Positions 8,852-10,741 of a DNA stretch of 22,788 nucleotides are shown one piece after another. This DNA comes from a virus (Duplodnaviria; Heunggongvirae; Uroviricota; Caudoviricetes). The position numbers and the translations under genes are program-made. The stretch covers positions 1 to 22,788 of the IMG/VR virus record IMGVR_UViG_2703718798_000002, one strand, 5' to 3'. Position 1 is the stretch's first letter. The number at the start of each line of letters is the position of its first letter. The notes beneath the pieces are model-generated. The model was given only the letters and a program-made list of their open reading frames with translations, ran no database searches and had not been told where the DNA came from.

Positions 8852-9037
8852 CAGAATATTTTGCTGAAAAATGACGTTTGCTCACGCGGACGGATAACAC
8901 GAAATCCTGCGAACTGGCAAAATGCAAGTGAATAAAGTCAGGAAGATTGTTTCACGCAGAGGCACCGTAATGGTGTCTTTGTCATTTCTGCGCTTCGCAC
9001 AAGCGTAAATAAACCAAAGAACCTTTCAGGATGAGCC

Positions 9038-9089
9038 CTGGTGGATAACCGGCAGTGGTCTGGTTAACCCTCTTTGGGCTGGTTATTCC
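9038..9089 (+). repeat. Three GGWTAACC-like motifs at regular 19-bp spacing upstream of the antirepressor-like gene
   Basis: ggataacc at 9043, ggttaacc at 9062, ggttattc at 9081. Confidence 0.4.
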
Positions 9090-9124
9090 TGTGCGCAGGG
9101 TTCATCACTAAAAGGAAATAACCG

Positions 9125-9490
9125 ATGAATATGATGACCGTGCCGTTTCACGGCGATTCTCTTTATGTGGTTAACCATAACGGTGAGCCATACGTTCCCA
9201 TGAAACCTGTCGTTGCGGGGATGGGGCTGGCCTGGCAATCACAGTTGGCTAAGTTAAGACAGCGTTTTGCGTCAACTATAACGGAAATCGTTATGGTTGC
9301 TGAGGATGGGAAACGACGCAATATGGTGTCCCTGCCACTTCGAAAACTTGCAGGCTGGTTACAAACCATCAATCCCAACAAAGTAAAACCCGAAATCCGC
9401 GACAAGGTAATCCAGTATCAGGAAGAGTGCGACGATGTTCTCTATGAATACTGGACGAAGGGGGGGGGGTCGTTAATCCCCGTCGAATGA
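9125..9490 (+). CDS. Phage antirepressor-like protein, N-terminal domain (AntA/Bro-N-like); possibly truncated by a frameshift at a G10 run
   Basis: 121-aa product with MTVPFHGDSLYVVNHNGEPYVPMKPVVAGMGLAW, typical of antirepressor N-domains. The G10 run at 9460-9469 lies 19 nt before the stop. Confidence 0.6.
   Translation: MNMMTVPFHGDSLYVVNHNGEPYVPMKPVVAGMGLAWQSQLAKLRQRFASTITEIVMVAEDGKRRNMVSLPLRKLAGWLQTINPNKVKPEIRDKVIQYQEECDDVLYEYWTKGGGSLIPVE
9460..9469 (+). repeat. Homopolymer G10 at the junction of the antirepressor-like ORF and the downstream ORF
   Basis: ctggacgaag gggggggggt read directly. Confidence 0.9.
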
Positions 9491-9696
9491 GTGTGATGGA
9501 AGAACTCAATCAGGCCTGCGCTGACATGAAACGGGATAAAAACATTGCCAGTGTGTTTGCTACCGGGCTGAATGAGTGGAAACAGGTTAAAGCCGCGCAT
9601 GTATCAAAAATCCGCACATTGATAAACGAAGCGAATCTGCTGATTGATTTTGTCCTGGCTGATACAGGCAAAGGGAAAATAACAAAGGCGGATTGA
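9487..9696 (+). CDS. Hypothetical protein (69 aa), possibly the C-terminal part of the antirepressor-like protein
   Basis: ATG overlaps the upstream TGA (ATGA). Its frame is open from 9448, so a -1 shift in the G10 run would join it to the upstream ORF. Confidence 0.4.
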   Translation: MSVMEELNQACADMKRDKNIASVFATGLNEWKQVKAAHVSKIRTLINEANLLIDFVLADTGKGKITKAD

Positions 9697-9710
9697 TGGA
9701 GTGGTGGCTA

Positions 9711-9845
9711 ATGATATCGGATAAAATCATAACGCTGACAAAGACCATTTGTGTGATTGTCGGCGTTTCATTTTCGCTAATGATGGTTGCTCTTTTTCTT
9801 TCCATAGCCTGGATGGCGTTGAGTTCGGTAGGGCTGGTGGGGTGA
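9711..9845 (+). CDS. Possible small hydrophobic membrane peptide (44 aa; below ORF-track cutoff)
   Basis: ATG at 9711 with GGAG 9 nt upstream. Product MISDKIITLTKTICVIVGVSFSLMMVALFLSIAWMALSSVGLVG is one predicted TM helix. Confidence 0.3.
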   Translation: MISDKIITLTKTICVIVGVSFSLMMVALFLSIAWMALSSVGLVG

Positions 9846-9965
9846 CAGTGACTGATGACGACAATTTATTTAAACAGATGAGTACTGAATTTATTCGGGC
9901 AACGGCATTTGCCATTCGCATTGTGGCAATTGCGGTTCTAATCCGGGCAATCCGCTGGTGGTGAA

Positions 9966-10733
9966 ATGAATAATAACTCTGCAAAACCGTTTCTCCCGTG
10001 GTTAGGAGGGAAGCGTCGTCTGGCAAAACATATTCTGCCGTTATTTCCTGAGCACACTCTGTATGTGGAACCGTTCTGTGGCGGTGCGGCACTGTTCTTT
10101 ATGAAAAAACCGAGCTGCGCTGAAATCATCAACGATATAAACAGTGATATCGTTAATCTCTACCGTGTGGTGAAGTACCACCAGGAGGAATTTTCCCGCC
10201 AGTTTCAGTGGATGCTCGCCAGTCGTGAGATGTGGAATGAGGTGATAAATCAGCACACGGAGTACATGACGGATATCCAGCGGGCTGTCCGTTTCTTTTT
10301 TATCCAGAAGTGCGCGTATGGCGGAAGAGCATACAGTCGGGCATTTGGAGTTAAAACTCACAGACCGCAGATAATCCCCGGGAATACAGAGCAGTTATTG
10401 CAGGAAGCCCGTGACCGGCTGGCGCGGGCAACTATTGAACACCTTGACTGGGAGGTCTGTATCGCACGGTATGATCGCCCGACAACGCTGTTTTACTGCG
10501 ATCCTCCGTATTGGTTGGATGGTGGTTACGGCATTGATTTTTCATTCTGCAATTATGAGCGCATGGCAGAACTTGCCCGCACAATAAAAGGCAAAATGAT
10601 TATATCCCTGAACGATACGCAGGAAATGAGACGATTGTTTGAGGGGATGAATATTCATCATGTTGCTCATCGTTATACTGTACCACGTGGTAAGACAAGC
10701 AGTGTCAGCGAGCTGATAATCTGCAATTTCTGA
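9966..10733 (+). CDS. Dam-family (D12 class) N6-adenine DNA methyltransferase
   Basis: N-terminal [12 protein letters not shown] and [11 protein letters not shown]doMet-binding motif plus DPPY catalytic motif. 255 aa. Confidence 0.85.
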
Positions 10734-10741
10734 CAGGGGGC

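Follow-up and report, generated by a model that had tools for sequence, protein, structure and literature searches.

A predicted pseudoknotted leader RNA upstream of the antirepressor-type gene in the lysis region of a 933W-like Shiga toxin prophage

We have analysed the 1.9 kb of DNA (positions 8852–10741) that separates the endolysin gene from the spanin genes in a 22,788-nucleotide stretch of a Caudoviricetes virus (IMG/VR record IMGVR_UViG_2703718798_000002, positions 1–22,788; this whole stretch is referred to as the window). The three repeated motifs in this block, which a preliminary description made by a model from the sequence had taken for an operator or iteron array, correspond to strands of a predicted leader RNA of about 135 nt (8990–9124), pseudoknotted and placed immediately upstream of an antirepressor-type gene, ant. 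Considering all the evidence, it is likely that the block consists of passenger genes within the late lysis operon, namely an ant module and a dam cassette, and that the leader RNA formed by the motifs gates the translation of ant.

Fold, covariation and distribution of the leader RNA

The leader module (all of its elements lie on the + strand) opens with a weak intrinsic-terminator-like hairpin, read from the sequence as GGCACC-GTAAT-GGTGTC and followed by a T-rich tail (8960–8989). Next comes a small hairpin, P0 (GCGCTT-CGCAC-AAGCGT, 8990–9006), whose pairing in the window was likewise read by eye and whose homologous helix covaries, and then a long three-part hairpin (9022–9115) supported by folding, by RNAalifold and by a covariance model. 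The long hairpin is built from a basal helix (9022–9026 with 9111–9115), a lower helix (9031–9040 with 9096–9105) and an upper helix (9043–9052 with 9079–9089), and has an asymmetric internal loop on its 3′ side (9090–9095). The pseudoknot joins a 5′ strand, CCAAAGA (9014–9020), through 7 bp to TCTTTGG (9071–9077) in the apical loop, a pairing taken from the alignment and from divergent loci. In the window and its subfamily the basal helix pairs CCUUU (9022–9026) with AAAGG (9111–9115), so that the AAGG of the ant Shine–Dalgarno sequence lies within the helix. The helix lengths (about 17 bp for lower plus basal and about 16 bp for upper plus pseudoknot, with a linker of 9 nt) suggest, as a model, a compact side-by-side fold hinged at the internal loop 9090–9095.

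The motifs themselves had been located correctly, at 9043 (GGATAACC), 9062 (GGTTAACC) and 9081 (GGTTATTC), with a spacing of exactly 19 bp. Within the fold, motif 1 (GGATAACCGG, 9043–9052) supplies the 5′ strand of the upper helix and motif 3 (CTGGTTATTCC, 9079–9089) its 3′ strand, and motif 2 (CTGGTTAACC, 9060–9069) is an alternative 3′ partner of motif 1 in a helix that we call P2. Since the distal half of motif 1 pairs with either motif 2 or motif 3, the three repeats amount to one 5′ strand and two mutually exclusive 3′ partners. Three GGWTAWYC matches within 46 bp, together with a total of 21 for the window where shuffles give 4.4 ± 2.6 (none of 100 reaching 21), indicate that the cluster did not arise by chance. 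The segment 9020–9130 folds with a minimum free energy of −43.1 kcal/mol (z −4.4), with motif 1 paired to motif 3 and motif 2 in the apical region.

The fold is demonstrated by covariation. When the spacer between the endolysin gene (R) and ant is aligned across Shiga toxin (Stx) phages, the motif region is its most variable part, and in the Stx2-II/Stx1 group the three octamers are gone altogether (replaced by AGGATACC, TCGGTGCC and GGATTCC) and the flanks compensate, CCCTG/CAGGG becoming CCTTG/CAAGG. The same long hairpin, with other arm sequences, is found upstream of ant homologues in Salmonella, Photorhabdus, Symbiopectobacterium, Providencia, Yersinia and Serratia. For 47 sequences RNAalifold returned 25 pairs, 11 of them with compensatory changes; 96% of cells were paired, against 32–53% with the partners slid, and 67 cells were compensatory, against 17.9 in shuffles (reached in 0 of 500). 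Once P0 and the pseudoknot were included, with 52 sequences, compensatory changes were found in 28 of 38 pairs (164 cells versus 40.4 in shuffles, again reached in 0 of 500), and 92% of cells were paired versus 33–43% with slid partners. As for the individual elements, the helix homologous to P0 is 92.6% paired and has compensatory changes in all four pairs; the six core pseudoknot pairs (columns 60–65 with 122–127) are about 98% paired, with pair types that include AU32/GC17/CG2, UA33/CG15 and CG43/AU8; and P2, which is seen in divergent variants too, is 96.5% paired, with one covarying pair (GC26/AU11). Moreover, divergent loci picked by their protein alone keep the pseudoknot by means of new complements (CGCAGAA/UUCUGCG, CCCCGAG/CUCGGGG and GCAUAGAG/CUCUAUGC).

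A covariance model built from the hairpin (R1) recognizes a single copy in the window (9017–9119, + strand only, 70.9 bits) and picks up divergent copies outside its training set at 44–89 bits. Scores on the + strand (71–111 bits) are far above those on the − strand (18–33 bits, or under the reporting threshold), as expected of an RNA that contains G–U pairs. Other readings of the region were tried and set aside. A third apical helix, P3 (columns 56–59 with 67–70), is 79.6% paired and shows no covariation. Motif 3 does not serve as a general anti-Shine–Dalgarno strand, since GGUUAUUCC of the window can pair with GGAAAUAACC (9113–9122) and, on inspection, the homologous strands of other subfamilies cannot. 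A mini open reading frame (ORF) that would use the ATG of the conserved ATGAGCC can have as few as 3 or more than 19 codons, has no Shine–Dalgarno sequence and is missing its ATG in Photorhabdus. Finally, a minus-strand antisense RNA or terminator resembling P22 sar was rejected, given that a U-rich minus-strand tail occurs in the window subfamily only and that minus-strand model scores are low.

The leader is widespread. A pattern search of IMG/VR gave at least 119 stretches with at least 63 distinct cores, and in roughly 95 of 104 distinct instances (those with a callable downstream ORF) the end of the leader lies 18–24 nt upstream of an ATG bearing a Shine–Dalgarno sequence. The genes behind it encode Rha, KilA-N (with ORF11CD3 or P63C), Ant with P22_AR_N, ANT/KilAC, Bro-N and HNH_3 proteins. 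As a way round the bias of a pattern search, 80 viral loci were chosen solely by similarity to P22 Rha; 78 of them have the leader, separated from the start codon by about 7 nt. Of 114 unique contexts, 75 also have a hairpin like an intrinsic terminator, with a T-run, whose end lies 57–61 nt upstream of the long hairpin; the version in the window is weak. The leader stands directly before P22 rha (101 bits) and is also present in ES18, phage 2851, Stx2 phage 1717, HK544 and phages of Hafnia and Klebsiella, and in P13374 and others the interval from Rz to the terminase genes contains a second copy, followed by a Rha or KilA-N gene. In loci of relatives compared here, this second copy and its gene lie between Rz and the small terminase gene (L001, 4030–4686; L234 and L237, 3825–4458); the same interval of the window is a 294-bp spacer (11219–11512) with neither a leader copy nor a Rha/KilA-N gene.

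Two observations concern the genes that follow such leaders. The annotated GTG start of P22 rha (ORF201), at 39575, falls inside the leader (BK000583, 39537–39644; L229, 1138–1245), and an in-frame ATG with a Shine–Dalgarno sequence lies 69 nt further on, matching the start position of the other instances; the start thus appears to be misplaced, and the annotated protein is probably 23 residues too long. Homologues that share only P22_AR_N and have a different C-terminus are without the leader in the ∼60–110 nt upstream of the gene (L015–L022, L020 and L025; gene start 3501 in most). Most of these have instead a GC-rich hairpin upstream of the Shine–Dalgarno sequence, for example GAAGCCCAACGGTGGCTAGACCGTCAGGCTTC (carriers are Erwinia, Rosenbergiella, Yersinia pekkanenii, Mixta, Izhakiella, Photorhabdus cinerea and an Armatimonadia metagenome-assembled genome), which may be a different leader or a terminator, and the Providencia copy (L018) has an unrelated hairpin.

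A search of the whole window against Rfam 15 at gathering threshold found only the small RNA (sRNA) STnc100 and left the leader unmatched, and three leader variants searched at E ≤ 10 gave chance-level matches far below gathering scores (to unrelated families, for instance microRNA precursors and sRNA terminator ends). Models of c4 and IsrK are included in Rfam. Literature on RNA motifs with Rha, KilA-N, antirepressors or leader sequences, and on rha or P22 leaders, yielded nothing relevant, though the 1995 rha paper may mention a dyad symmetry. Apparently this leader RNA of antirepressor-type phage genes has so far gone undescribed.

The ant module and the dam cassette

The boundaries of the block agree with the preliminary description in both coordinates and gene identities (Pfam). 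Upstream are a class II (P21 S-type) holin gene, S (8101–8316; PF04971, E 7e-33), and, after a gap of 4 nt, the endolysin gene R (8321–8851; PF00959), coding for a phage lysozyme with a hydrophobic N-terminus that is 89–96% identical to Stx-phage lysozymes; downstream, beyond 1.9 kb of non-lysis DNA, are the i-spanin gene Rz (10742–11218; PF03245 and junction alignment) and, inside it in the +1 frame, the o-spanin gene Rz1 (10971–11156; PF06085), all on the + strand. Both the class II holin with its adjoining lysozyme gene and the embedded Rz1 are as in lysis cassettes of the P21/933W type. The start of Rz is ambiguous: the ORF opens with an ATG at 10742, 8 nt past dam, and the P13374 homologue is annotated from an ATG equivalent to 10760. 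The interruption of the cassette is not unusual: R, ant, the 49-aa ORF and Rz, in that order, are the standard arrangement of 933W-like Stx phages (so annotated in P13374, Stx2 II and Ss-VASD), and only the dam cassette is uncommon there.

Layer 1 (8852–9845) comprises the 273-bp R–ant spacer, the 189-aa ant and a hydrophobic ORF of 49 aa. It is 89–98% identical in P13374, Stx2 phage I/II, phage 86, Ss-VASD and many others, in which ant is annotated, and the ant half of the block is matched by 329 phage records and by 1584 of 5426 complete E. coli genomes. The ant half is ordinary content of 933W-like Stx phages; the comparison of lysis regions that had been proposed as a check on the block's peculiarity thus goes, for this half, against it.

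The ant gene (9125–9696, + strand; P22_AR_N plus ORF11CD3, 189 aa and 570 bp in relatives) was delimited with Pfam, phrog_524 and alignment to intact relatives. Its N-terminal half (9125–9490) is a P22-type N-domain (PF10547, E 2.7e-46), and its C-terminal part is ORF11CD3 (PF10549); the C-terminal domain of P22 Ant was not found in it by Pfam, nor is the immI context (arc, mnt, sar) present at ant in the window, where the neighbours are lysis genes. Here the gene is split into ORFs of 121 aa (9125–9490) and 69 aa (9487–9696). The first had been called antirepressor-like and the second listed as a separate small ORF; the two are halves of a single gene. The frameshift comes from a G10 homopolymer (9460–9469, + strand), which stands where relatives have GGGGGGTG or GGGTTTTG and adds a net 2 nt; the G-run region of relatives reads GGGTTTTGTC, GGGGGGTGTC or GGGGGTTGTC, each of which keeps the frame. 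L231, the closest relative (98.6% identical), has G8 plus C, a −1 change that produces the same shifted frame (about 1986–2010 of that locus). More generally the tract differs in length among close relatives, with G3, G5 and G6 forms in frame; the exact G10 variant has no match in IMG/VR, and PHROGs has a separate family for each half (phrog_14366, profile 122; phrog_16011, profile 69). The G10 run could be a sequencing or assembly error, or else a real, possibly length-variable and slippage-prone tract. Because the frame is broken by the run, at most separate N- and C-terminal domain fragments would be made from the window sequence. Our literature search found no experiments on repressor binding or inactivation by an Ant of the window type. 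The experiments on ant of φ24B were considered and discounted, since the ant studied there is another gene, which lies upstream of qut (PMC3064807).

The stop codon of ant overlaps the ATG of the conserved 49-aa hydrophobic ORF (TGATG; 9696–9845, + strand; phrog_4906, E 1e-26), which is annotated in relatives. This is the ORF previously reported as a possible 44-aa membrane peptide. A homologue also occurs in locus L004, which is without ant. Indeed, small hydrophobic ORFs (the 49-aa phrog_4906 ORF and one of 28 aa) are kept between endolysin and Rz in prophages that lack both ant and dam (L004, 2248–2596), and the two may be unrecognized parts of the lysis cassette. Homologues of the window type of Ant adjoin endolysin or Rz genes in Photorhabdus, Symbiopectobacterium, Yersinia and Serratia (L009, L010, L014 and L029), so that the link between this gene family and the lysis cassette would seem to be old and widespread.

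Layer 2 (9846–10741) consists of the 28-aa ORF (9878–9964, + strand), which lies between the 49-aa ORF and dam and directly precedes Rz in other lambdoid prophages, and a 255-aa Dam-family (D12 class) N6-adenine DNA methyltransferase (9966–10733, + strand). The preliminary description had recognized the latter, and the assignment is confirmed by PF02086 (95.9 bits, cutoff 22) and, marginally, by TIGR00571 (115.2 bits, cutoff 114.85); the score with NF008152, the equivalog model of the host Dam, is far below its cutoff (72 versus 441 bits). The translation contains FYCDPPYW and a glycine-rich S-adenosylmethionine-binding motif, aligned to DpnM. Its best relatives of solved structure, DpnM (2dpm) and E. 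coli Dam (2g1p), are remote (phmmer E 1e-17); both are GATC enzymes, and GATC is at most a candidate specificity of the window enzyme. No nuclease gene adjoins dam in the window or in eight contigs inspected, its neighbours being the 28-aa ORF and Rz, and we therefore regard the methyltransferase as an orphan.

The full block with the dam cassette is present in only 4–5 of 5426 complete E. coli genomes, and an identical Dam protein is indexed in 1213 blocks of a large assembly collection. In each of the eight contigs inspected, whether ant is present or not, the gene for this identical Dam sits in the interval from lysozyme to Rz or Rz1, and the backbones include both 933W-like and lambda-like (Nu1/GpA) types. 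In strain KY176 a dam allele of 80% identity directly follows the 49-aa ORF; its 5′ junction differs from that of the window cassette and its 3′ junction is shared. The ATG of dam, in the context TGGTGGTGAAATGAA, occupies the position of the Rz start in prophages without dam, and dam ends 8 nt before Rz. The cassette thus has no room for a promoter or terminator of its own and is presumably promoterless, in keeping with expression from the late operon. It is a minor variant and, in our reading, one more late-operon passenger. As a separate observation, GATC is depleted throughout the window (57 sites versus 89 ± 7.8 in dinucleotide-preserving shuffles), with a single site between 5897 and 10472.

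Translational gating and competing explanations

We propose the following course of events. The ant module, ordered as weak terminator, structured leader RNA, ant and translationally coupled 49-aa membrane ORF, occupies exactly the same position in hundreds of Stx phages, and the dam cassette would have recombined in directly upstream of Rz. Late transcription from PR′, antiterminated by Q, would read past the weak terminator, yielding a single RNA, contiguous from R, that carries the leader, ant, the small ORFs, dam and Rz/Rz1. Being on the late transcript, dam would be expressed while progeny DNA is replicated and packaged, and the enzyme could methylate that DNA before packaging. The folded, pseudoknot-locked leader would meanwhile limit or gate translation of the antirepressor-type gene downstream. 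We infer gating, as the most likely mechanism of the leader, because the basal helix pairs the Shine–Dalgarno sequence in the window, and in other subfamilies the Shine–Dalgarno sequence follows the helix by no more than ∼10 nt, a distance at which it would still lie inside the footprint of an initiating ribosome. The exchange between P2 and the upper helix may represent a step in co-transcriptional folding or a switching step, and processing by RNase at the asymmetric internal loop would be a compatible addition. Autoregulation by the encoded protein is unlikely, since the downstream proteins are unrelated and too diverse.

The claim that Dam and the antirepressor are under late-operon control is supported by the architecture, which fits read-through, and by the promoter scan, in which no σ70-like promoter was seen upstream of ant; it needs amendment in that ant is frameshifted.

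Several points weigh against the proposal as a whole. The Shine–Dalgarno sequence is sequestered in the window subfamily and not in the P22/consensus subfamily, where it comes after the helix, which leaves gating less direct there. A pattern search in which ATGAGCC, GGGCTG and GGTTCAT were fixed supplied much of the alignment, and conservation at these positions is partly by construction, although neither the covarying positions nor the protein-selected loci are affected; kinship among the sequences can, in addition, inflate the shuffle statistics. The consensus scan that found no σ70-like promoter in 8852–9124 is crude, and a promoter there, or one of an unusual type, may have escaped it. Lastly, if the G10 run were an assembly error, ant would be intact in the window.

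Among the alternatives, the one that survives best, while still improbable, is that the leader serves mainly for processing by RNase III or RNase E and for stabilization, uncoupling the passenger gene from the lysis mRNA, with no part in switching or sensing. It would in this resemble the intercistronic sites of T7 and the lambda N leader. Its helix, long and interrupted, with an internal loop that is strongly asymmetric on the 3′ side between the lower and upper stems, would suit such a role, as would its place in a long late transcript, where it separates cistrons and often follows a terminator; a plain processing hairpin, however, needs no covarying pseudoknot, no separate P0 and no conserved alternative helix. 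We also doubt, rather more strongly, that the ant module, alone or with the rest of the block, forms an autonomous moron that has its own promoter and is expressed in the lysogen independently of Q antitermination. The terminator-like hairpin before the leader is typical of the 5′ edge of a moron, and promoter-like hexamers were noticed by eye upstream of the terminator in some viral loci, but only about 15–25 nt separate the T-run from P0, with no σ70-like hexamers among them, the scan of 8852–9124 came up empty, and the tight packing of dam and the small ORFs leaves no intergenic space. It is quite unlikely, again, that the leader is primarily a boundary or linker at the DNA level, a landing pad for homologous recombination that would account for unrelated genes downstream. 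Very different genes do share the leader, single phages have two copies before different genes and mosaic joints are evident around the block, yet recombination alone produces neither compensatory changes in four helices nor a strand-specific G–U pattern, copies in one genome differ in arm and pseudoknot sequence, and the shared boundaries may be a consequence of leader conservation and not its function. The operator or iteron array, in which a phage repressor or a replication or partition protein would bind the GGWTAACC sites to control an ant promoter, had in its favour that the three octamers just upstream of ant are alike, partly palindromic and spaced by exactly 19 bp, and that the motif is enriched in the window; it is refuted as far as comparison allows, leaving it a negligible chance: the sites are lost in the Stx2-II/Stx1 group while the flanking helix compensates, the corresponding strands of other genera are unrelated in sequence yet still complementary, G–U pairs and model scores are strand-specific where a DNA signal would be strand-symmetric, no promoter-like site is nearby, and 19-bp spacing puts the sites out of helical phase.

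Returning to the gating leader within a late passenger block, Stx phages normally carry cargo between R and Rz, and the block itself changes little, though a late-expressed Dam could affect packaging, restriction evasion or prophage stability. What the repeat region reveals is a widespread, strongly covarying, pseudoknotted RNA before accessory regulators that are poorly understood, among them ant of Stx phages and rha of P22, one of the most intensively studied phages. If these genes are under the control of the leader, the question of why antirepressor-like proteins sit in late operons becomes open to experiment, and the leader could show how their expression is kept in check, with a bearing on Stx prophage induction and toxin release. 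We put forward, only tentatively and as improbable on present evidence, that the leader belongs to a new class of RNA switch that senses a metabolite, protein or RNA and gates Ant, Rha, KilA-N and Bro-N in temperate phages of the Enterobacterales, including P22 and Stx phages; such a switch would tie a cellular signal to lysis–lysogeny decisions or prophage cross-talk, and might account for the old IHF-dependent rha phenotype.

Prophage context and comparison with known systems

By its gene content, the window is the late region of a Stx1-converting, 933W-like prophage; it contains stxA and stxB, the SASA esterase, holin, lysozyme, spanin and terminase genes. Just upstream of stx lie genes for a HsdM-like N6_Mtase protein (366–2075; 569 aa) and a HsdS-like type I specificity subunit (2150–3235; 361 aa); no HsdR is visible in the window beside this pair (366–3235), which may therefore represent a second orphan methylation function of the prophage besides Dam. 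They are followed by stxA (3751–4707; RIP family) and stxB (4717–4986), whose translations read as the Stx1 type, then by STnc100 (5065–5278; a full-length Rfam match of 195 bits), which lies between stxB and the gene for a SASA/NanS-p-type esterase (5491–7404). A DUF826 protein is also encoded, and the terminase genes are downstream of Rz/Rz1.

The closest arrangement is found in the 933W-like phages P13374, Stx2 phage II and Ss-VASD, in which R, ant and Rz have the same order, with a 273-bp spacer (89–98% identical), a 189-aa Ant and the 49-aa ORF; the window differs from them in its additional 28-aa ORF and Dam before Rz and in its frameshifted ant. The leader RNA is unannotated in those of their records that we inspected.

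The methyltransferase likewise has counterparts among phage-borne orphan Dam enzymes, such as T4 Dam, P1 Dmt and Stx-phage Dam. Like these, the window enzyme is of the D12 class, has FxGxG-like and DPPY motifs and is without a partner nuclease. It is ∼58–60% identical to the nearest widespread Dam family of enterobacterial prophages, and is sited inside the lysis cassette.

In architecture, the leader recalls pseudoknotted operators and aptamers such as the rpsO/S15 and T4 gene 32 leaders, and the long-range pseudoknots of the THF and ZTP riboswitches. In these too, a covarying long-range pseudoknot locks a hairpin that is at, or includes, the Shine–Dalgarno sequence, and an alternative helix competes; in contrast to them, the leader has no known ligand or binding protein, and shares no similarity with them in sequence or model.

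Among RNA regulators of antirepressors, a 2025 review of phage small RNAs covers sar, c4, IsrK and 24B_1 and nothing like the leader (PMC12197685). P22 sar, P1/P7 c4, Gifsy-1 IsrK and φ24B 24B_1 resemble it in exerting post-transcriptional RNA control beside an antirepressor-type gene (PMC12197685). They are, however, antisense or trans-acting small RNAs, whereas the leader of the window is a pseudoknotted 5′ element on the sense strand acting in cis, and the context of P22 sar (arc, mnt, sar) is not found at it.

Finally, P22 rha (ORF201), which belongs to the late operon and is flanked by Rz and gene 3, is reported, in what a later paper cites of the original study, to encode a product that blocks growth in hosts defective in IHF (Henthorn & Friedman, 1995, cited in PMC4936722). 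By eye, no convincing match to the IHF consensus was seen in the conserved upstream box. P22 rha has the same leader directly upstream and the same position at the edge of the lysis cassette as ant of the window; its product is a Rha-domain protein, unlike the P22_AR_N Ant encoded here.

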